Shown: positions 22,304 through 56,740, counted from the whole stretch's first letter. The stretch is DNA of 63,628 nt, filler included, from 4 parts of 4 records of this genome joined end to end with filler, not necessarily neighbours in it, one strand, 5' to 3'. Notes: generated from the letters alone by a model not told the origin. Program-made: numbers and translations.

Positions 22304-22627
22304 AAAGCAGTTTTGTGGCGGCGACCAGAGGTGAGGAACCGTGTCTACATTAGAGTTGTTGCACGGTCTATCTGCAAATCTTTCGCTTTGATACGCGTCG
22401 GTAGCTTGAATCCGGCCGAACTGTAACACGGGCACTACATGTGTGTTTGACTACTTGGAAACGCGGTCGAAACATGCAGCCGGCCACAAACGATGAAGAT
22501 GTAGGGTGACCCAGGGAGTGCATTCAAGAAACGCGAGCACTTCCGGTCAGAAAAAAGCGGTCATCCGCGGGCACATTCTCTTTCAGCGCACTCGTCAATT
22601 CATATTCTTAGATTGCGACTTCACAAT

Positions 22628-25600
22628 ATGACAAAACAAACGAACCGATGGTTGCTAACTGTCTTCGCAATTGTTTTGCCCTCGATTCTACACGTGTATT
22701 CACCGGTTCCGCTCTTGGGGCAGGTGCATGTGGATACCGACGAGCGCGGAATGACCATCGACGTAAAAACAGCGCCCGCACGCCTGATTGTTGAAAATAG
22801 CAGGTCTTATTTGCGTCTGCACGAGCAGGCACATGTTATGCCGGCCACGATGAAGGAATTTCTGGCAGAAGACCCCTTCAAGTTTAGCACTCAAGAACAG
22901 AACGGCCAGATCGGTAGAATTTTTGATTCCGGTGCGCAGCAGAATATTACAACGCTGGATGGCGTTGGACCGCTGCAGACAGAATTGCATGATAATATCG
23001 GCGTGGACCTGAGCAACTTTCCAGCCTACGCCGGTCATGACGAATTCACCTTTACGATTGCCGTACCGGATGCATCTACTCCACAGATAAGTACTGAGAT
23101 TCTAAGCGCTGATTTTGTGAGTGCTGAATTCAGTGAATCCGGTTTGTGCGATGTTGATTTGCCGCAAGCTTTTGGTGCATTTGATCAACAGGCGGTTTAC
23201 ACCTACCTGGGGAGCCACCGCGGCGTACATATTGCAGCGGTGCGCTACCAGCCATATCAGCAGGATGACAACTTTTGCCTGAAGACGGCAACGCGCACGC
23301 GCATTCGCCTGAACTTCAACCAGCCTGTTCCGACCAGCCCGAATCCTGAGGCTCCAAGACTTATGGTCTCCGTGCTGAATCAGGCACACGTTCCCTTTCT
23401 CGGAGAACGGCGCCGGCAGAGTAAATCGGCAGCCGACAAGGTTTTAGGCGGCGGCGATGCCTGGTTCTCGGTTGAACAGCCAACTGTAAAATTGACGACT
23501 GAGCGCGATGGAATCGCGCGGATAACTTTAGGCGAATTGGGTGCAGCCGGGCGCATCCTGCTCGGACGCGATCCGGCTTTTCTGCGCTTGTTTTATGACG
23601 GCGTTGAGCAGCCGATTCAGTTTGTGGACGATGGCAGCGGTCAGACGTCCGACGCTGATATTCTCTACTTTCTTGGGCGTCGCAGCACGGGAGATACGAC
23701 CTATTTTGACGTGCACAGCAATCACGCAGTTTTTTTCCTGACCTGGGCTCAGGAAGGCGAAGCTCCGCAAAGATTCGAGGCATTTCCGCAGGTCGATCAG
23801 GTGGCAGGAGATGTTGTTGATGTGACCATCAACCGTCATATCGAAGAGGATCATTTCTACAATCTGGGTGACGTGATTGTGGGACTGCCACACACCATTA
23901 ACCTGCACCGCAGCGAACCAGTGACCGGCGAAGGCTGGCTCTGGCGTGATTTGCGGCGCGGTGAAGTCTTTGAACAACGCATGCCGACGGCTCCAAGCGA
24001 ACGTCCGGGCAGTACACTCGACTTCGTGTTCCGCTACAAAACTATCAGTGATGATCAGCTCTATGCTCCCGACCACTTCCTGCAGTTTTTTGTGAACAAA
24101 GAAATGCGCGGTTCCGAACTTTTTGACGGCTACCGCGATCGCGAGTTGGTTGCACGGATTGGGACGGACTCGGTTCTGGCCGGGACCAACCTGATGGAGG
24201 TTACTTCGCTGGGCGCGCCGGAATGGCGTGAAAGCGTTGGATATGTAGACGTATCGGCGATGAACTATGTGGCGATGCGTGGCAGCGTCAAACCCTTTGC
24301 CTGGGCGGGAAGTGCCGAGTTTACAGTGGCTGCATCCGCAAACGCAGAGCGGCTTGTAATTCCCGGCTTCAGTCAACGCGACGTGTTTGTAATCGATGCC
24401 AAGAACAATCTGTTTGGAGCATTAAAGGCCGGTCGCGCAGGTGTAACGGTTCGTGCCGGTGCGCGTGCCGGAACAAACTCAGCCCGCAGCGTCTACATCA
24501 ACGATCAGGAAATTTTCTACGATAATATTCAAGGCGAAGCCGCGGTAATTGCGGACAACAATTCGGCAAGAATCATTAGTGTGTCCGATGTTCGCGGCGC
24601 GTATGCCGAGGCCGCCAATGGCACGGCAATCGTTTTGCTGTTTAACGACGAAAGCGATGTGAGTTCCGATTTCACTTCGGCAGCCGAAGCGTTGAATTTG
24701 AACGCAAATGGTGTTCGCGGTGGCACTTCCTGGATGGGAGCTGCAATTAAGGGCGGCGAGTCAATCAGTCGCGGCGGCGGTGACGCCCTGGTGGCTTCGA
24801 TTTCAACATTTCTGGTACACTCGACCGGTCAATCGCACGAGCTGGCAGTTAATCTTGAGGCGGGCCGCGAGCATGCGATCATCGCCGGTGATGCTTCAGT
24901 TGTTGAGCGTCCGGAAGTTTGGAGCGTTGGAACCAAAGACTTGAGCGCCACGTACCGCGCCGATCTGATCATCATTGCACATGCCGACTTCCGCACTGAG
25001 GCTGAAAGACTGGCGCAGTATCGTCGTGACCACAGCGGCCTGGCTGTAGAAGTTGTAGATGTTGATGACATTTACACTCAGTATAATCAGGGGCGCAAAC
25101 ACCCACAGGCAATCAAGAGTTTTCTGGACTTTGCGTATAACAACTGGGCTGCTCCGGCACCCGAAGCCCTGATTCTGTTTGGAGATGCTTCCTGGGACAT
25201 GCGCGGCGTTTCCGCCGATGCAATCAAAAAAGATTATGTGCCTGCATACGGCCGGCCGGTAAGTGATTACTGGTACGGTTTGCTCGATGGCACAGACCTC
25301 CTGGCCGATATTATCATTGGACGTATCTCCGTAGAAACACCGGAAGAAGCACGCGTTGTTGTTGACAAAATTATCAGCTACGAAGCGCAGCCCAAACGCC
25401 CATGGCAGAAGAACTTTCTGTTTTTGGCAGGGGGCAGCTCCGCGTTTGAGATTCGCGGATTCCGCTCGGATGCCATTTCAATTTCGGCCGACAATGTCTT
25501 GTCTACGCCACTTTGTGGCACGATCGACACTGTATTTAAGGCGAACGCCTCCAATGTTTCAACCTCGCAGGGACGCGTGATTCGCGAGAAGATTAATCGC

Positions 25601-28585
25601 GGTGCCGTCTGGGTGAACTACGTGGGCCATGCCGCACCGACTATTTTTGACATGGACTTTGGTGATGCCAGGGAATTGAACAACGGCGATCGTTATCCAA
25701 TGCTCGCCACATTTTCCTGCCAAACGGCGGCTTTTGCCGAGCCTTCTGTTGTAGCCAAGAATGAAGAGTTTGTGCGCGAGTCTGGTCGCGGAATGGTTGC
25801 CGCTCTCGGTACTACCGGTTTTGGCAACATCGCGGTGGATAACCTGCTGCTGCGTGGAATGTTGGCCGGGATTCGCTTCAAGAATCAGCGCCGTATGGGA
25901 GAAATTCTCTTTGAAGGTAAATGGTCCATCATGACGGGCATTGAGCGCGGCACGCAGAATCCCTTTGACTCTGTTGAGCCGGTTGTTTACAACACCGTCA
26001 TGCAGTATTCACTCATTGGCGACCCATACCTGGAATTGCCGATCGACACATTGCCGAACCTCTACGTTCTGCAGGAAGATGTGACGGTAGTGAATGCCGA
26101 CGGAAACCGGGCTATTTCTGAAAAAGATAACAAGGCCTTTGTAACTGCCATAGTTCGCAATGCCGGAATTTATATAAGTGACTCCGTAGTTGTGCGCCTG
26201 GAGCACGTGTTTGAGCAGGAATCACATATTTTCCTCGATACTGTGCCGCGCGAGTGTTTCCCGCGCGAATTCAAGTGGGAATTGGACGTGGCCACACGGC
26301 CGGGCCAGCACAAAATCGTACTTGATCTGGATCCCTTTGAAAACCTGGACGATGTAGACAGAGAGAACAATCGTTTTGAAATGAGTTTCTCCGTCTTTCC
26401 CGAAGGTGTTTTTGCTTTGGACCCACTGCCGCATTGGAATGTGGCTTTGGACAATCCTGTTTTCCGCGTCATGACGCCACGCGACTTTGAAAACTTCAAC
26501 TACGAGTTTGGCATTTCAACATCCATTCTGGAACAGGACATCTTTTTGCGTTCCGACGTCAGTGAAGCTACCGGTGAATATTACACCGAATGGCGTCCCA
26601 ACGTGGAGCTGACACAGGATCAGTCCTACTGGATGTTTGCGCGTTCAATCCTCAAGGACGGTGAGCGCCCCGGCGACTGGTTGATCATTCCATTTGTGAC
26701 GCGCCGCGTTCAGGAAACTCAACTCGCCGAAGCTTCATTACGCTCCCTGGGCGATTTTGCGGGCCTGCCGACAAGTTTTGAAATTTTACCCGAGGGTGAT
26801 TCCGTCATGCTGGCGGCGCGCAATATTCTGGTGCCGCTCAGCGTACGAGCATCAGGTAGTTTTTCTACTCGCATCATGCGTGTCCAGGTGGGAGACTCAC
26901 TCTACATCGATGATGCATTGGTGCGTGGCGTTCACGTCTACATCTTTGGCCCTGGCCAGCAGGACGCGCGCTACTACAAACGTTTTGACACTTATGATGC
27001 CGACTCCACGCTGATCGAAGAATTGTTGGGAGTCCTCGAAAATGAGGCCGGACCAAACGAAACAGTACTGTTGGCCAACTGTGATGAATCCTGGCGTCGC
27101 ATCGAGTCGCTCGAATTCGTGGAACAGTACCGCGCCGCAGTCAGAGGTCTTGGAGCCGAGTATGCCGACTCACTGGGTGAGTCCAGTACCTACTTCCTGT
27201 ATTCGCGCAATGGACGCGCGTTGTATGAAGAGTGGCGTGATGGTGGACTCGACAACACGCCGATTCAATATGATGGCGACATCGAGACATTTGCCGATTC
27301 GTATACTTTGTCTACACAAACCTTCGGACCCTCGCAGGAATGGCGCTCTTTTGCATTGGAGTCTTCCGGCGATCCCGACGGACAGTGGACTGTAGAAGTT
27401 TGGGGAACGGCTAACCGTAACTCTGCATATGAGTCGCTAAAAATCGTCGAAGCCAGAAATGTGGATCTGAGTGACATTGATGTTGAGCGTTACCCCTGGT
27501 TGCGCTTTGACCTGCGTGCCGTGCGCGGTAATGTAGACCGCGATCTGCTGCTCACCAATGTAGCCGTCACCTTTGTGCCGGAGGCCGAACTTGGAATTCT
27601 TGAGTCCGAAACCAATTTGTTGTCCGAATCTGTGCAGCGCGGCGAACCCGATCATCTGGATGTGACGGTTGAAAATCTCTCGCCACGCGCGCCCGCCAAA
27701 CCGTACTCAATTATTGGTTTGTTGGGCCCTTCAAGCGGACAAAGTGGCGGCTCGTATCGGCTTGAGTTTAACAATCCGGAGCTGCCGCCAATGCAGACCT
27801 GGTCTGGACGACAAGAAATCCTGACGGCCGATCTTGCCGAACTCTCGGAGTTGCGTTTAACAGTTGCCCCCGAGCGACTTGAGCGCGAACTATACGTCTT
27901 CAATAATGGTGCGCAGTTTGACCTGGCGGTGCAGAACGACGTCGTAGATCCTACCTTGAGAGTGTTTCTTGATGGCGAAGTGTTTGTGGATGGCAAGTTC
28001 ATTCACAATCGCCCCCGCGTCCGTGTGGAGCTCTTTGATGACTCACCTTTGCCGGTGCTGGACGTCAACAATCTGGAAATTGAGTTGCGCCGTCGTGGCC
28101 CGCTCGATGCTGAGACCTCAATGGCTGATTACAGCATTGAACTTGTCAACGATGGCTCCGGCTTAAAGGTTGTGGCTGAGTTTGATGCCGAGCTGCTGAT
28201 TGGCGATAATCCGCTGACAATTGAAGGCTGGGACGCCACGGGGAACTCCACGAGCGCCACCTTTAATCTGGTGGTTAGCTCACGCGCCGAAATTGGCAAT
28301 CCGATTGTCTCACCCAATCCTATTAGCGACAACGTCACCGTGCAATTCTCGCTGGTAGACAACTTTCTACCAACAAATGGTTGGATTGAAGTTTTTGACC
28401 TGATGGGCGGGCGCGTTGCAAGCGTTAGTTTTGCACCGGAAGTGGGGCAGAACACGGTCCAATGGAATATGCGCGCAGGCCGCAATCAACTGGTTGCGCA
28501 GGGTACGTACTACTTGCGTGTGTATGTTCTGGGTGGGTCGGCAATTTTATATAGCGACGCCGTTCCGATTATGTTCATCCGTTGA
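22628..28585 (+). CDS. Very large C25 (gingipain/PorU-like) cysteine peptidase with Ig/CARDB-like domains and a T9SS-type C-terminal domain
   Basis: DLIIIAH, VDVDDIY, LILFGDASWD, SDYWY, IGRI, catalytic NYVGH and FSC, YSLIGDP. C-terminus SPNP...IEVFDLMG...WN...GTYYLRV. Confidence 0.88.
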   Translation: MTKQTNRWLLTVFAIVLPSILHVYSPVPLLGQVHVDTDERGMTIDVKTAPARLIVENSRSYLRLHEQAHVMPATMKEFLAEDPFKFSTQEQNGQIGRIFDSGAQQNITTLDGVGPLQTELHDNIGVDLSNFPAYAGHDEFTFTIAVPDASTPQISTEILSADFVSAEFSESGLCDVDLPQAFGAFDQQAVYTYLGSHRGVHIAAVRYQPYQQDDNFCLKTATRTRIRLNFNQPVPTSPNPEAPRLMVSVLNQAHVPFLGERRRQSKSAADKVLGGGDAWFSVEQPTVKLTTERDGIARITLGELGAAGRILLGRDPAFLRLFYDGVEQPIQFVDDGSGQTSDADILYFLGRRSTGDTTYFDVHSNHAVFFLTWAQEGEAPQRFEAFPQVDQVAGDVVDVTINRHIEEDHFYNLGDVIVGLPHTINLHRSEPVTGEGWLWRDLRRGEVFEQRMPTAPSERPGSTLDFVFRYKTISDDQLYAPDHFLQFFVNKEMRGSELFDGYRDRELVARIGTDSVLAGTNLMEVTSLGAPEWRESVGYVDVSAMNYVAMRGSVKPFAWAGSAEFTVAASANAERLVIPGFSQRDVFVIDAKNNLFGALKAGRAGVTVRAGARAGTNSARSVYINDQEIFYDNIQGEAAVIADNNSARIISVSDVRGAYAEAANGTAIVLLFNDESDVSSDFTSAAEALNLNANGVRGGTSWMGAAIKGGESISRGGGDALVASISTFLVHSTGQSHELAVNLEAGREHAIIAGDASVVERPEVWSVGTKDLSATYRADLIIIAHADFRTEAERLAQYRRDHSGLAVEVVDVDDIYTQYNQGRKHPQAIKSFLDFAYNNWAAPAPEALILFGDASWDMRGVSADAIKKDYVPAYGRPVSDYWYGLLDGTDLLADIIIGRISVETPEEARVVVDKIISYEAQPKRPWQKNFLFLAGGSSAFEIRGFRSDAISISADNVLSTPLCGTIDTVFKANASNVSTSQGRVIREKINRGAVWVNYVGHAAPTIFDMDFGDARELNNGDRYPMLATFSCQTAAFAEPSVVAKNEEFVRESGRGMVAALGTTGFGNIAVDNLLLRGMLAGIRFKNQRRMGEILFEGKWSIMTGIERGTQNPFDSVEPVVYNTVMQYSLIGDPYLELPIDTLPNLYVLQEDVTVVNADGNRAISEKDNKAFVTAIVRNAGIYISDSVVVRLEHVFEQESHIFLDTVPRECFPREFKWELDVATRPGQHKIVLDLDPFENLDDVDRENNRFEMSFSVFPEGVFALDPLPHWNVALDNPVFRVMTPRDFENFNYEFGISTSILEQDIFLRSDVSEATGEYYTEWRPNVELTQDQSYWMFARSILKDGERPGDWLIIPFVTRRVQETQLAEASLRSLGDFAGLPTSFEILPEGDSVMLAARNILVPLSVRASGSFSTRIMRVQVGDSLYIDDALVRGVHVYIFGPGQQDARYYKRFDTYDADSTLIEELLGVLENEAGPNETVLLANCDESWRRIESLEFVEQYRAAVRGLGAEYADSLGESSTYFLYSRNGRALYEEWRDGGLDNTPIQYDGDIETFADSYTLSTQTFGPSQEWRSFALESSGDPDGQWTVEVWGTANRNSAYESLKIVEARNVDLSDIDVERYPWLRFDLRAVRGNVDRDLLLTNVAVTFVPEAELGILESETNLLSESVQRGEPDHLDVTVENLSPRAPAKPYSIIGLLGPSSGQSGGSYRLEFNNPELPPMQTWSGRQEILTADLAELSELRLTVAPERLERELYVFNNGAQFDLAVQNDVVDPTLRVFLDGEVFVDGKFIHNRPRVRVELFDDSPLPVLDVNNLEIELRRRGPLDAETSMADYSIELVNDGSGLKVVAEFDAELLIGDNPLTIEGWDATGNSTSATFNLVVSSRAEIGNPIVSPNPISDNVTVQFSLVDNFLPTNGWIEVFDLMGGRVASVSFAPEVGQNTVQWNMRAGRNQLVAQGTYYLRVYVLGGSAILYSDAVPIMFIR

Positions 28586-28620
28586 TCATGCTTTGTTACA
28601 ATTCGGGTGTTTAGAATACG

Positions 28621-28659
28621 CGGGCTCATTGTCATCAGGATAATGAGCCCGTCGTTTTT
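28621..28659 (+). terminator. Intrinsic terminator after the C25 gene
   Basis: CGGGCTCATTGTC-atcag-GATAATGAGCCCG followed by TCGTTTTT. Confidence 0.75.
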
Positions 28660-28731
28660 GCGGCATGTTTCGTATAAGTAACACGTCATCTAAAATCGCA
28701 CGTAGCAACTTGCATTTTTTCTACAAAACTA

Positions 28732-28762
28732 TTGTTCTACTGACGTAGAGTGCGTAACTTGC
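28732..28762 (+). promoter_or_regulatory. Putative Bacteroidota-type sigma-A promoter
   Basis: TTG (28732-34), 20-nt spacer, TAACTTGC (28755-62); approximates the -33 TTTG / -7 TAnnTTTG consensus. Confidence 0.45.
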
Positions 28763-28766
28763 TTTA

Positions 28767-29225
28767 GTCGTATCAAGATGATTAATGGCTTTGGTCGGAC
28801 TTCAAGACACTCTCCTAAATTTCGGAATGGATGCCGCATACGTCGTTTGTTCGCAATCCAGTATCTGTTCGTGAATTATCGAGCAAATGTTACATGCTGT
28901 TTGGCAACTGTGGAACACGATAGTTTAGGATTCAGCCCAGTTCTTGGTCTGCACATGCAAATATTTTCAATGCTACGACGTTGATTGTCCGATGCTTGCT
29001 TAGTGTGTACACAGGCATGCAGGTTGCAAGATGGAAGATTCAGGTTGGAGATACGCAGGATTACATCGGACAGATTGACTCGTCGGCACATTCAATGTGT
29101 CTCCCGGCTTCACGCGCCGTAGTCCGGGAGTTTTGGTTCAGCGCGTACGTTGATACTGCGCATTGATACGTTGTTCGGCGAGTTATGGCGGACGGGCCCG
29201 GTTGGCGGCCCGTCCGTTTTTTTTT
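28767..29225 (+). ncRNA. Candidate large structured non-coding RNA (unassigned)
   Basis: Lies between a promoter-like motif and a strong terminator with no credible ORF. 5'/3' closing helix CGTATCAA/TTGATACG and several nested long-range helices (see findings). Confidence 0.55.
29188..29225 (+). terminator. Strong intrinsic terminator
   Basis: GCGGACGGGCC-cggttggc-GGCCCGTCCGT followed by a T9 run. Confidence 0.88.
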
Positions 29226-29606
29226 GTGCCTATTATCACGAAATACCATCCGTTTGAGACTGATTACTAGTCGTTGGCACTATTACGCTGGTAGGGACTT
29301 GGGAATGTGTGCATGTTACATGTGTCAAACAGCTCCGGAGCGTTGACCCAGCAATGCCTTGCTTCGACGAACAGGTCGATTTGGAACTCCATGTAGCAGT
29401 GGTGTACCTCAAAAAATCACTCGGAAAACCTGAGGTAGGAAGGGACTACCCTGGAGCGAAAAAAAGGGTGAAAAATTTTGGATGGCGGCTGGCGGGGTAG
29501 GGGACTTCCCTTTTTTAAACGTCCTCAATCCAGTTACTTTTATTCAATGTTTTCAGTAATTATTGAAAATAGGTGTCGGGTTCCATTTCAGCACTTCAAA
29601 TAATTT

Positions 29607-29775
29607 GCTCGGGATTCGGCTTTTGACTCGGCTCGGGATTTGGCTTGGGATTTGGCAATTGACTCGGCTCGGGATTCGGCATTTGACTCGACTTTGGATT
29701 CGGCTTTTGACTCGGCTTGGGGGGGCGGCTCGGGATTCGGCTTCTGACTCGGCTCGGGATTTGGCTTAGGACTCA
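29607..29775. repeat. 12-bp tandem repeat array (~14 units)
   Basis: Units GCTCGGGATTCG, GCTTTTGACTCG and variants; one 13-bp unit at 29715-29727. Confidence 0.9.
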
Positions 29776-30003
29776 TCACTGGACTGATCAGCGGACTAGT
29801 CACAGACGCAACTGCGAACTCTGACTCAGTTGTGGATTAAGACTCAGCATTTTAGCCACACTCGACGCTTTGAGCCCGCTTGTCACATCCGTTCCAATCT
29901 GGTCTCAGGCTTGTTGGATTTTCTTGTTTGGCACTGAGATTTACGTTGCGCTGCGCTGCAGACACAGGGAGTTGCGGCAGACGCGGTGACTTCAGCATCG
30001 GCA

Positions 30004-30062
30004 CCCAAAAACTAACAAAAGCAAAAAAGTAAGCCACAGACCGCAGGGATAGGGGCGAAGCG
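30004..30062. repeat. Dispersed ~55-nt motif, copy 2
   Basis: Shares 17-, 10- and 11-nt identical blocks with 18632-18682 in the same orientation. Confidence 0.8.
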
Positions 30063-30078
30063 CTCAGGCCTCATGTTG

Positions 30079-30320
30079 CCAGGCCAAACCACAAGTCAGT
30101 TAAGAAAACAACAGCCAGTCCAAACCACAAGTCAGTTAAGAACACAACAACCAGGCCAAACCACAAATCAATTAACAGACCAACCGCCAAACCAAGCCAC
30201 AAGCCAGCCAGCCGCGAATAATCAAACCCAGTTAAAACTCGGTTAAAAGATCATTAACTGAACCAAGCCGCAAATCTGTTAACAGGTTAATACGCAGCAC
30301 TAGCCACACTTCTGTTAACA
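30079..30320. repeat. 36-bp tandem repeat, progressively degenerate
   Basis: CCAGGCCAAACCACAAGTCAGTTAAGAAAACAACAG at 30079, near-identical at 30115, diverged at 30151 and 30187, relics near 30263 and 30300. Confidence 0.85.
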
Positions 30321-30498
30321 ATTTAATCAACAGGCCAAGGTGAGTTAGAGCAAGTTAACAGAGCCGGGGCCAATCTGACCCAGGAGTAAGAACAAATGTT
30401 TGAATCTAAAACACCAGTGCCCACCACCTCAAAAGTCAGGAAAACGAGCACTGTGTTAAAGTCTGCATTAAACATGCCTGTCCACTTAATGGTATCAG

Positions 30499-32940
30499 CT
30501 AGAATGGCGAAGAAAGCGTTACTGACCAGCCAAAATCATTGCCGATGGGGCTTTCTACCGACCAGCCCGCGTCAAATCCCAGGAAAAATACGTTGCTGAT
30601 AAAAATTGGGATTTTGCCGATGCCAAAGCCGACTTCCGTATGTCCGTTGCTGCCCGTGCCGGTATAAAAACCACTCTCCAGGTTAAGTGGCGCGTTTTGC
30701 TCAAATATTCCACTGTTAACAAATAGGCTGACATCCAAACCCCGACCTTCGAAGGTTGGTAAGCCAATTGCGCGCCACCACAAATCGGTGAAATTGTGGC
30801 GTGCATACAATGCCACATATTCAGTGCCACCGAAGAAGCCCGGGCCGCCGGTGATAAATTGATCCGCGCGCCCAAAAACACGTAAACGCGTTGGCATTAC
30901 AAATTGATGTTGGATGGGTGTTTCGTCATCCGCTATGCCGCCCTTAAGCGCCAGTTCCAGCGTCATTGGTACATATCCGGAACTGAAGGTCGGAATGGTG
31001 CTGCGCACGCCGCCACGCAAGACGCGAAAGCGGTCACCAGTAGCATCGGCCTCGGCGTAGAGCGCTTCCAGCTGTGCTGTTACATCGAATCGCGTGCTGG
31101 TAGAAATACTCAGGTTAACATCATAGTTGCCCCAGGTGGCAACGCTGCGAATAATATTAAACTGCCCCTCGGCAACCGCCGGGTTAGCACGGAAAATGCC
31201 ATCTTCGTTGGGAGCAAAGGCAGACTTAAACAGTCCACTTTCGGAGGTCCTTGCGGTACTGAAGTGACGCTCCTGGCTGAACCCGGTATAAAAGTTAATG
31301 CGGTCGTGGCGCAACGTTAAACCCGCGCTCCAGCCATGGCGCTCAAAATAATCGTAGTGATCCTGGCTGAACAACGCGGCCAAAACTGTATTGGCCTCGC
31401 GGAAAAAAGACCTTCCATGCGGCTGCGTTGCCAGCTCGGCAAAGACCGAAGCTGCCGCCCAAAGGTTGCCGTGCTCCCAGTCGAGAACACGGCTGCTTAG
31501 GCGCGCGTTGCCATAGAATTCTTCGGTGCCAAAAGCGTAGAAACCTTCGCCGTCAAAGCGCAGCGGATCGTAAAACATTCTGAACTCCAGGCCTGGAGCG
31601 GCACCGGCAACGCGGTTAAACACAAACTCAGGGCTGTAGTTGTACCTGAATGTAGCACCATCGATAGGATTACCGGCAGCAATATTTGCCTCGCGTACAA
31701 GACTGTCTACTTTGGCGTACATCCTGGTTTCGCGGTCTGTTAACTGCGCCGGGGAAGAACGTTCCCAAAACTCAGCTGCGCTGGAATCGGCCAGGGGACT
31801 AACGCTGAAAATTGTTTCCTGTTTGTAGATCGAATCGGGGAGTGGTTTGTTAACAACAATATCGCGGTAAAAGCTGGTTGCGCTAAGCCTGCCGCCAACT
31901 TCGGCGATTCCAGCAATGACCGTGACAGAACCTGAGCCGGAAGAGTTGAGAAAGGTTGGAGCCCAAATGCTGTCGGCCACTTCTTCAAATTTTTGATGAA
32001 ATTTAACATCATCGATATAGCGGATCGCGGTGCCTGCACTGGGCTCGGCCCGCACTTCAATCAAATCATATGTACCGCTTACAATTGTCATGCTGCCAAC
32101 AAATCCCGGGAAAACATCCGAGTAGGGTTTGAAGTCCAGCGTCCATGCAACTTGATCGTCAAGCATGGTGCGTTTGTTAAGTGTGAATTCATATGAGTCG
32201 AGTGCGTCGGAGGCAAGCGGCGTTGTAATCACCGCGTTTGAAATGCGAAAGCGTTCTTCGTAGAAGCTGTAGAAATTGGTAATCGCCAGCAGGTTGTTGT
32301 CGGGTGTTATGTTGGCGGTCTGGCGCCGTTTTTCTATTGAAATATGAGTGACGTCGGCTTCATTATCGCGCATCACAGTTGAAAACGATTCGCGCAACTG
32401 ATTGCGGTCTTTGTCTTCGATCTCACCAAAAACATTGCCTTCGATTTCAAAGGAGAGTTTGCTGTAGAGTTCGGCTTTGAAGGTTTTGAGGCGTTCCTGA
32501 TTGGCGTCTTTGCGCTGTATGGCGCGCCGCACAATTTCCTCCGGAGTTGGTTCGGCGGTCACGATAACCTCGCCCATTTTGATATCTGTCGGCTGCAGCG
32601 CGATTGTGTTTATGTCGCTTTCGGATGTAATGCTGATGCCACGCTGTTTAACATAACCGAGCGAGGAGACATCGATTACGGCCGGAAGTGAAGAGACCGA
32701 GATCCTGAAAGACCCGTCGCTGAGACTGTAAGTGCCGACGTCATGACTCGAAACGTAAATCGTTGCGCCTGGAATTGTCTGATCGTTTTGCGCATTCTTG
32801 ACGAACCCCGAAATCGTAAATATGGATTGCGCATAACCCGGCGTCTGTTGGCCTGCAAAAAGAGTCACAAAAATTGCAAAAGCTGGAAGCAGACGCAAGC
32901 GGCCCGAAGCTGCTGCGCCAAAGTGGTAAGAATTTGGCAT
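30499..32940 (-). CDS. DUF5686-type outer-membrane protein with N-terminal carboxypeptidase-regulatory-like domain
   Basis: Signal peptide, ISGFVKN...IPGATI...GTYS..DGSF, EEIVRRAI, FNRVAG, terminal ...LSSPF. Start trimmed to ATG 32940. Confidence 0.75.
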   Translation of the reverse strand: MPNSYHFGAAASGRLRLLPAFAIFVTLFAGQQTPGYAQSIFTISGFVKNAQNDQTIPGATIYVSSHDVGTYSLSDGSFRISVSSLPAVIDVSSLGYVKQRGISITSESDINTIALQPTDIKMGEVIVTAEPTPEEIVRRAIQRKDANQERLKTFKAELYSKLSFEIEGNVFGEIEDKDRNQLRESFSTVMRDNEADVTHISIEKRRQTANITPDNNLLAITNFYSFYEERFRISNAVITTPLASDALDSYEFTLNKRTMLDDQVAWTLDFKPYSDVFPGFVGSMTIVSGTYDLIEVRAEPSAGTAIRYIDDVKFHQKFEEVADSIWAPTFLNSSGSGSVTVIAGIAEVGGRLSATSFYRDIVVNKPLPDSIYKQETIFSVSPLADSSAAEFWERSSPAQLTDRETRMYAKVDSLVREANIAAGNPIDGATFRYNYSPEFVFNRVAGAAPGLEFRMFYDPLRFDGEGFYAFGTEEFYGNARLSSRVLDWEHGNLWAAASVFAELATQPHGRSFFREANTVLAALFSQDHYDYFERHGWSAGLTLRHDRINFYTGFSQERHFSTARTSESGLFKSAFAPNEDGIFRANPAVAEGQFNIIRSVATWGNYDVNLSISTSTRFDVTAQLEALYAEADATGDRFRVLRGGVRSTIPTFSSGYVPMTLELALKGGIADDETPIQHQFVMPTRLRVFGRADQFITGGPGFFGGTEYVALYARHNFTDLWWRAIGLPTFEGRGLDVSLFVNSGIFEQNAPLNLESGFYTGTGSNGHTEVGFGIGKIPIFISNVFFLGFDAGWSVESPIGNDFGWSVTLSSPF

Positions 32941-33226
32941 GTGGGTATCTTGGGATTGAATTGGAGCGGAAAATTCCAAATGCTTGATGCCAGGAAATAT
33001 GTGCCGGGAACAGACTTCCAAAGGGAAACCTGTAGCCGCTCTACGCCGCTCTTCCAAAATTGTTACTTAAGACCGTGTTACCATCTGCGCAGAGAAGTAA
33101 TCGCGCAAAAAGTCGCGCAAAAAGTCGCGATTGCAGTCCGCATCCAAACCGAATGCAGACACTCCGACTGTGGCAAGTCAGAGTCTGTTTGTAACTGTGG
33201 CTACAGGAAATTCAGCCGTTTCAGCA

Positions 33227-35692: not shown

Positions 35693-35885
35693 AAGTTATA
35701 CCCGGATGTGTCAGTTGCAATCACGTGTAAGGCAATAAGTGGGGACGTTTATTTGGCGCAAATCCTGCACGAACGTCACCCCGCCGTTAAATGTTTCAGT
35801 ACTGTTCCTGATTCTGCCTGAATTTTGCTAAATTACTGCACGCCGTTTGTGTAATTCCGGCGGCGCATTCAGTAAATGTCATGGC

Positions 35886-53692: not shown

Positions 53693-54087
53693 CTGTCATC
53701 CTCTCGTTTTGTTGTGGTTGGAAACAGCCGGCCAATCAGCCAATCGGCAATGCGACCGCTGCGGGCTTCGGTGGCGTCCATGACGCCCACAAAGATATTG
53801 ATCAGCCAGCTACTCGCCGCGCCCGCCCCGATCATGATCAGTTGCGGGGCCAGCCCAAAATGGTCGAACTCAGCGGATGCAATCACCGCAATCGTCGCGA
53901 CCACCGCAGCGGTTGCCATGATGCCCACCAACTTACGGGTGCTGCGCCGATGGCGGGCAATCAAACTGCCCGCCGCAAGCGCCATAAACAGCCCGCCAAG
54001 ATACACATGCGGCGCAAGGCTGATGCCGACCCCGGTTAAGGTCAGAGTCAACCAATCACGCGCTGTTTCCAGTGCTTGTTCTTTCAT
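53689..54087 (-). CDS. Phage membrane protein (holin-like, 3-4 TM)
   Basis: Hydrophobic 132-aa ORF overlapping the endolysin start. Confidence 0.6.
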   Translation of the reverse strand: MKEQALETARDWLTLTLTGVGISLAPHVYLGGLFMALAAGSLIARHRRSTRKLVGIMATAAVVATIAVIASAEFDHFGLAPQLIMIGAGAASSWLINIFVGVMDATEARSGRIADWLIGRLFPTTTKREDDR

Positions 54088-56593: not shown

Positions 56594-56695
56594 ATCGGCC
56601 AGAAGGCCCGAACCGAAATTCGTTTCACGTGTGGTGCTTAGGGAGCACGTGGGGTGGACAGGGGGTTCCGGGTGCGGCCGGGACCCCCTGTTTTT
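56594..56695 (+). ncRNA. Candidate ~100-nt small RNA
   Basis: TTGCCA-18 nt-TACAAC promoter-like motif (56558-56587), internal CACGTG/CACGTG hairpin, and terminator CAGGGGGTTCCGG/CCGGGACCCCCTG + T5 on the plus strand. Confidence 0.4.
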
Positions 56696-56740
56696 ATGCG
56701 TCACGCCGGGAACAGCGTCAGTACAAGATATGGCCGGACC

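Follow-up and report, generated by a model that had tools for sequence, protein, structure and literature searches.

A candidate structured non-coding RNA gene of ~460 nt, conserved mainly in its 3′ half, in a narrow uncultured lineage

The stretch of DNA analysed here, referred to throughout as the window, comprises 63,628 nucleotides (filler included) and contains a long interval poor in open reading frames between a giant peptidase gene and a convergent neighbour. The question raised by this interval is whether it holds a large structured RNA and, if it does, of what kind. The first-pass annotation, made from the sequence of the window, had proposed a structured RNA of ~400-450 nt with its own promoter, a closing helix and a terminator, and had considered that it might belong to an undescribed class of large RNA. 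The analysis reported below supported a structured, non-coding RNA candidate that is encoded on the + strand and ends in a terminator; it did not support several of the helices or the assignment to a large class.

Genomic setting and boundaries of the RNA

The RNA candidate lies within an ORF-poor stretch of 1.9 kb (28586-30498). Its upstream neighbour is a giant gene of 1990 aa on the same strand (22613-28585, +), assigned to its family by a Peptidase_C25 domain and termed here the C25 gene, and its downstream neighbour is a convergent DUF5686 gene of 852 aa (30499-33057, -) with a paralogue behind it. On the + strand, the first ORF of 150 aa or more downstream of the RNA begins at 35847. An intrinsic terminator directly after the C25 gene had been noted in the first-pass annotation and is present (28620-28652, +); it has a stem of 14 bp with a T-rich tail after it, is strong, and stands 110 nt ahead of the RNA. 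This terminator was found in the window only, no counterpart being detected between the C25 gene and the RNA in either of the two related loci described below.

Relatives were sought in genome contigs with the DUF5686 protein and 27 loci were recovered. Two of these, L001 from MAG G001 and L002 from MAG G002, encode proteins with 66% and 64% identity respectively, and the other 25 loci encode proteins with 27-39% identity, mostly in genomes that carry the labels Kapaibacterium, Ignavibacteria or Bacteroidota. When five of the genomes were searched at the DNA level, the RNA candidate was located in G001 and G002 only, where it is single-copy and where the matches were restricted to the 3′ part of the RNA (window 29056-29224 at 84% identity and 29095-29225 at 90%). 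The homologue search advised at the outset thus showed the element to be conserved in two related MAGs, with compensatory changes that are described in the next section. Gene order is collinear in the window, L001 and L002 (C25 gene, RNA, convergent DUF5686 gene), and the flanking genes share ~64-72% DNA identity between the window and the two relatives. L001 and L002 are about 90-92% identical to one another throughout; the three sequences, two of them near-identical, therefore amount in effect to one comparison, and an R-scape-type statistic was not possible. The host lineage of the window, G001 and G002 appears to be Bacteroidota-like, judging from the neighbours with Peptidase_C25 and DUF5686 domains. 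The L001 record is labelled as a Hyphomicrobiales MAG, yet the remote homologues of the C25 and DUF5686 genes are in Kapaibacterium, Ignavibacteria or Bacteroidota, and the label looks wrong.

Identity between the window and L001/L002 was 32% in the upstream intergenic DNA, 47-50% over a promoter-like string, 100% over the 11-nt block that follows it, and 37-40%, which is near random, in the inner part of domain 1. It was 56-58% in domain 2, 75-78% in domain 3 and 88-97% in the terminator, and 26-31% in the DNA past the last T.

The promoter-like string (28732-28762, +) consists of TTG (28732-34), a 20-nt spacer and TAACTTGC (28755-62). The TTG, the spacing and the TA..TTG are preserved in L001 and L002 within a segment of only 47-50% identity. 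From these features of the sequence we infer that the RNA may have its own promoter just upstream, and this is the preferred reading. The motif itself has low information, since a relaxed version of it matched seven times in the window over both strands; TAnnTTTG was not enriched in the intergenic DNA of the window (2 seen versus 2.5 expected) and a scan for sigma-70 promoters returned no sites. Of the promoter named in the first-pass annotation, the motif string is present and its arrangement is conserved; as a promoter it is putative. An ECF-type promoter (GTAAC ... CGTA, ~28678-28704), noticed by eye on the alignment, was rejected, its spacing differing by 2 nt in the relatives.

The invariant block TTTAGTCGTAT (28763-28773, +) is presumed to represent the 5′ end of the RNA; its 11 nt are identical in all three sequences, between flanks of 32-50% identity, and it contains the 5′ arm of helix P1 (28767-28772). 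The 3′ end of the RNA is an intrinsic terminator (29187-29225, +) with a 12-bp stem (nine GC pairs), an 8-nt loop and nine T, the hairpin occupying 29187-29218 and the nine T 29217-29225. This GC-rich terminator with its run of nine T, also called from the window alone, is conserved in L001 and L002, and the level of identity given above extends to the loop. Alignability stops at the last T of the terminator when the window is compared with its relatives and also when L001 is compared with L002.

Conserved structure in the 3′ half

The RNA sequences of L001, L002 and the window were folded singly and gave the same four-part layout: a domain 1 closed by P1, a domain 2, a domain 3 and the terminator. 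P1 pairs GUCGUA (28767-72) with UACGAC (28974-79) on the + strand and closes domain 1 only; both of its arms are invariant in the three sequences, and it was present in all three independent MFE folds with a pair probability of 0.34 in the window and ~1.0 in L001 and L002. Domain 1 (28774-28973, +) is a variable insert of ~200 nt, the length of which is conserved and the sequence and inner helices of which are not. Domain 2 (28985-29073, +) is a branched hairpin with a closing helix at 28985-28992/29066-29073. Domain 3 (29077-29184, +) is a three-way junction with a closing helix at 29077-29085/29176-29184 and includes two hairpins, P3b (29101-29130, +), which has an invariant apical region of 16 nt, and P3c (29135-29157, +).

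The folding check suggested by the first-pass annotation, MFE against dinucleotide shuffles, showed the candidate as a whole to fold only marginally better than the shuffles: the 459 nt gave z-scores of about -1.9, similar on both strands (-1.89 on the + strand and -1.97 on the - strand). Domain 1 of the window folded alone (28767-28979) gave a z-score of -0.50, with 60 of 200 shuffles as good, and domain 1 of L001 gave -3.2. The 3′ half (28980-29186) gave -2.19, with 6 of 200 shuffles as good.

RNAalifold consensus energies were also compared with those of column-shuffled alignments in which the gap and conservation patterns were preserved. The whole region gave z-scores of -6.95 (+) and -5.31 (-), and none of the 150 shuffles was as good on either strand. 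For domain 1 the consensus fold did not reach significance (z -1.3, structure conservation index 0.42, with 19 of the 200 shuffles as good). Domain 2 gave a z-score of -5.6 and domain 3 a z-score of -6.5 with a structure conservation index of 1.0, none of 200 shuffles being as good in either case, and the terminator gave -5.0.

A curated structure of 91 pairs was assembled from P1, domains 2 and 3 and the terminator, and 95.6% of its cells pair. Both-sided changes were found in 10 pairs, compared with 4.1 ± 1.5 after shuffling (0/500) and 0-3 when the partners were slid by 1-3 columns; these figures come from a structure derived from the same alignment that was used to score it, and most of its pairs never vary. 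The clearest examples are three helices. In the helix that closes domain 2, 100% of the cells pair; one A-U pair has become U-A and a single one-sided change is present. The helix that closes domain 3 is likewise unbroken, with both sides altered at two pairs and a single one-sided change, and hairpin P3b has two one-sided changes. Domain 2 is conserved chiefly in its helices. In domain 3 both the stems and the loops are nearly invariant, a pattern which fits the recognition of a specific shape. The many G-U pairs, together with a T-run on one side only, point to the + strand. The constrained part of the element is thus the 3′ ~240 nt (domains 2 and 3 and the terminator) and the P1 helix of 6-7 bp.

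All of the helices listed in the first-pass annotation can be drawn at their positions in the window, and they fared differently in the relatives. The global closing helix (28769-76/29163-70) is possible in the window only, since L001 and L002 have a different sequence where its 3′ arm falls. The helices assigned to domain 1, which make up the majority of those drawn by hand, were similarly unsupported; besides the z-scores of -0.50 and -1.3 given above, the segment is unalignable to the relatives at 37-40% identity. In domain 2 the core TTGTCCGATG (28985-94)/CATCGGACAG (29064-73) is conserved and carries the A-U to U-A change, and the core pairing TGTCCGATG/CATCGGACA was confirmed, but the outer pairing CGACG/CGTCG is broken in the relatives, and CGTCG belongs instead to the covarying helix that closes domain 3 (29077-85/29176-84). 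The hairpin CTCCCGG/CCGGGAG (29101-30) is conserved. A further hairpin, GCGCGTA/TACTGCGC, competes with an alternative and is only a candidate, its columns being invariant and its 3′ arm carrying a 1-nt deletion in the relatives. The view that all of the ~400-450 nt are structured was supported for P1, domains 2 and 3 and the terminator and unsupported for the ~200 nt of domain 1.

Known RNA families and distribution

No known RNA family was matched. Rfam 15 at gathering scores gave no matches in the whole window, as had been anticipated for a novel RNA. At E ≤ 10 there were five matches in 28500-30600, all far under threshold (e.g. 17.7 versus 80 bits), and in the homologous loci L028 and L029 there were only two noise matches, to animal lncRNA/miRNA families. 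ARAGORN detected no tRNA or tmRNA in 28000-31000. RNase P RNA (RF00010) had no match in the window, and neither ARAGORN nor Rfam located tmRNA (RF00023) there; full-score copies of both sit elsewhere in G001 and G002 (290-297 bits for RNase P RNA and 173-174 bits for tmRNA), so the element is no diverged copy of either. The absence of RNase P and tmRNA hallmarks, remarked on in the first-pass annotation, was thereby upheld. A riboswitch or cis-regulatory leader was excluded on the grounds that the next gene is convergent (30499-33057, -) and no same-strand gene follows.

6S RNA was rejected as well. It is a single rod of ~180 nt with a central bubble, whereas the element is made up of three separately closed domains and a terminator, and neither 6S model (RF00013, RF01685) matched the window. 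6S RNA is a housekeeping-type sRNA and its slot is formally open in G001 and G002, where both models gave no match; in a control 6S RNA was recovered from no more than 5 reference genomes out of 14, a rate at which a missing match carries little weight, and this lineage may have a 6S RNA that has diverged beyond the reach of current models. The element is missing at the syntenic site of a sister genome (see below), which would be unexpected for a housekeeping RNA.

Among intergenic, terminator-ended bacterial sRNAs, staphylococcal RNAIII is a long multi-hairpin regulator. The element resembles stand-alone intergenic sRNAs, RNAIII included, in its intergenic position, its terminator with a T-run, its lack of a conserved ORF and its narrow taxonomic range, and it resembles RNAIII-type sRNAs in its length of several hundred nt and in having a conserved 3′ module beside a variable part. 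Unlike these sRNAs it has no embedded peptide gene and no similarity to any curated sRNA family, and its promoter is putative. A literature search on structured ncRNA discovery in Bacteroidota yielded general discovery papers and nothing specific to the element.

The distribution of the element was assessed with a covariance model, R1, comprising domain 3 and the terminator. Among 151 order-level genomes R1 matched G001 and G002 only, plus one weak match (E 0.105), and within the family of G001 and G002 two of the four genomes hold the element. In 29 sequence sources, which included syntenic loci of more distant relatives, R1 detected the window's own copy only, plus two weak matches. Weak R1 matches in the window at 53880-53975 (-) and 56610-56697 (+) had E-values of 0.13 and 0.31, scores of 17-19 bits and a GC content of 0.60-0.65, and are probably terminator-like hairpins. 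BLAST searches gave three matches of 20-39 nt in 61 relatives (E 0.001-0.007) and one match of 40 nt in 401 class-level genomes (E 7e-4), all judged to be chance. A metagenome scan with an invariant 18-nt motif gave 10 loci, all with dissimilar flanks and all attributed to chance; a second invariant 18-mer had no matches in viral contigs, and blastn gave no match in plasmids and phages.

In the sister family genome G007 the orthologous C25 gene and DUF5686 pair are present with only ~120 nt between them (L057, G007:C138, 8322-8444). R1 run on this syntenic region with filters off gave a best E-value of 0.23, for the terminator only, and the element is absent. The whole non-coding region of 1.3-1.9 kb, including the RNA, is therefore either a gain in the lineage of the window, G001 and G002 or a loss in G007, and its absence at this site indicates that the element is young or dispensable.

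Expression and nature of the element

In an RNA run from an estuary metatranscriptome (X1), 5% of the sampled words of 28000-30600 were present. One X1 contig of 245 nt matches 28800-29044 with five differences, at a depth of 3.3; it has no strand or end information, DNA carry-over is possible, and domain 3 is uncovered. Outside 28800-29044 there was no cover on the rest of the 2601 nt (28000-30600), which is no evidence of silence. The chance of such a contig falling wholly inside the 463-nt RNA was ~0.09 by our own estimate. The metatranscriptome mapping recommended in the first-pass annotation thus yielded one RNA-library contig within the RNA.

Segment 28763-29225 (+) is probably, with appreciable room for doubt, a non-coding RNA gene of ~460 nt belonging to a narrow uncultured lineage, with a trans-acting regulatory or protein-binding role. 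The element has no match in any known family and looks like an orphan sRNA of a known kind; a new class of large RNA is not demonstrated. Orphan sRNAs of narrow range are common in bacteria. The RNA would be transcribed from its own promoter directly upstream (TTG-N20-TAnnTTG) and would regulate in trans. Its working module would be the 3′ half, comprising domains 2 and 3 and the terminator hairpin, which would either pair with targets via the invariant 16 nt at the apex of P3b or bind a protein, and domain 1 would be a tolerated variable insert. The combination of a fast-changing domain 1, a helix-conserved domain 2 and a near-invariant domain 3 fits a trans-acting RNA with a working 3′ half.

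Target searches gave no signal over background. When the P3b loop was paired with 42 start regions of the window, the best duplex had an energy of -22.7 kcal/mol, at about the 1st-2nd percentile of background, which is expected for 42 tries. Complements of the P3b loop with at most three mismatches occurred at 64 and 66 sites in G001 and G002 respectively, compared with 211 and 233 for a reversed control, and a site with one mismatch ~10.8 kb away in G002 had no counterpart in the window. To our knowledge, almost no regulatory RNAs have been described from uncultured Bacteroidota-like lineages. The RNA is well delimited and has a conserved three-way-junction domain, and offers a defined subject for mapping of metatranscriptomes, structure probing and searches for targets or partners; without more distant homologues or a function it leaves the understanding of large structured RNAs unchanged.

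The main rival to a separate RNA gene is a long structured 3′ UTR of the C25 gene, or an sRNA cut from that UTR, in either case without a promoter of its own; we regard this as possible and somewhat improbable. Domain 3 and the terminator would then serve to stabilise the C25 mRNA or to regulate it, or would be freed from it by processing. In all three genomes the RNA lies behind the C25 gene and shares its strand, and its promoter motif is a weak one. Between the C25 stop and the RNA no terminator-like site was seen in L001 or L002, in which the terminator of the RNA is the first one downstream. The element is accordingly like 3′ UTR-derived sRNAs in lying directly 3′ of a gene on the same strand and in having, in two of the three genomes, the first terminator after that gene. 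It is unlike them in the window, where a separate, strong terminator with a 14-bp stem comes right after the C25 gene, 110 nt ahead of the RNA, and in the conserved promoter-like arrangement at its 5′ end; the 11-nt invariant block and TTG-N20-TA..TTG occupy the expected start position amid DNA of 32% identity. The X1 contig lies in the RNA, and the final 586 nt of the C25 gene have none, a weak point against the 3′ UTR.

The element could also, though improbably, be the first representative of a new class of large structured RNA, ribonucleoprotein or catalytic in role, comparable to OLE, ROOL or GOLLD and with domain 3 as its tertiary-structured core. OLE, ROOL, GOLLD, HEARO and raiA are large structured ncRNAs of unknown or RNP function that are represented in Rfam, and these classes occur in many genera and have many covarying pairs. 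The element is like these RNAs in exceeding 400 nt, in having several independently closed domains and in being non-coding; its length of more than 450 nt with a multi-domain layout, the near-invariance of both stems and loops of domain 3 beside neighbouring DNA saturated with change, and the lack of a match to known families are all consistent with such a class. It is unlike them in being found in three genomes, in being constrained only over its 3′ ~240 nt and in having no Rfam match. It occurs in two of the four genomes of the family and in no further genome among the 151 order-level or 401 class-level samples, is not in the syntenic loci of more distant relatives or in viral contigs, has ~200 nt (domain 1) that are unconstrained, and is missing at the same site in the sister genome G007. 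The large RNA class raised by the first-pass annotation, seen in the window and two related MAGs only, was therefore not borne out. It is correspondingly improbable that domains 2 and 3 form the tertiary-structured core of an undescribed large RNA, ribonucleoprotein or catalytic, that is specific to this Bacteroidota-like lineage and carries domain 1 as a variable peripheral domain; if this were true, the apparent rarity of the element would reflect thin sampling of the lineage.

It is very improbable that the conserved segment has no RNA function and is instead a site acting at the level of DNA (for recombination, attachment or protein binding), or a case of chance conservation beside a terminator. 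The abrupt end of alignability at the last T in every comparison, with DNA beyond it that varies in length and content, forms a pattern resembling an insertion hot spot. This reading is opposed by the compensatory changes that maintain the helices, by the G-U pairs that favour one strand and by a consensus fold far below that of the shuffles; the element is moreover single-copy in each genome, is unmatched among plasmids, phages and viral contigs, and is represented by a contig in an RNA library.

There is no conserved reading frame in the RNA. No ORF longer than 68 aa was found in the candidate on either strand, the best conserved part of the RNA contains 1-nt and 2-nt indels, and tblastx showed all six frames to be equally conserved, several of them with stops. 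Domain 1 of the window and domain 1 of L001 contain ORFs that bear no relation to each other (E 0.13). The sole shared ATG frame starts at an invariant ATG (29095), is shared over ~20 codons and would encode a peptide of 23 aa in the window but of 46 aa in L001. That the RNA encodes a small peptide, for example from the ATG at 29095, alone or as a dual-function RNA, is barely credible: the frame common to the window and L001/L002 over those ~20 codons is terminated by a 1-nt indel, giving 23 aa versus 46 aa, nucleotide conservation continues past the window stop codon into the terminator loop, and both the six similar tblastx frames with their stops and the unrelated domain-1 ORFs count against it.

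The non-coding gap 3′ of the RNA in the window contains two arrays of tandem repeats, at 29603-29774 (12/24/36-nt period, ~7-13 copies) and 30078-30207 (36-nt period, 3.6 copies), neither of which occurs in the corresponding, shorter regions of L001 and L002. Short repetitive ORFs cross the arrays, such as a 71-aa ORF at 29588-29803 (-), and were judged to be probable products of the repeats. Within the same gap an island at 30014-30063 has 80% identity to L002 and matches a terminator-like hairpin located directly 3′ of the DUF5686 stop in L001 (12408-12427) and L002 (12461-12475). In the window this island lies ~440 nt past the DUF5686 stop, with an insertion carrying 36-nt repeats in between. 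Another terminator-like hairpin that bears a T-run (29499-29511, +), weaker than that of the RNA, is located ~280 nt 3′ of the RNA terminator in window-specific DNA, and a further short transcript is possible.
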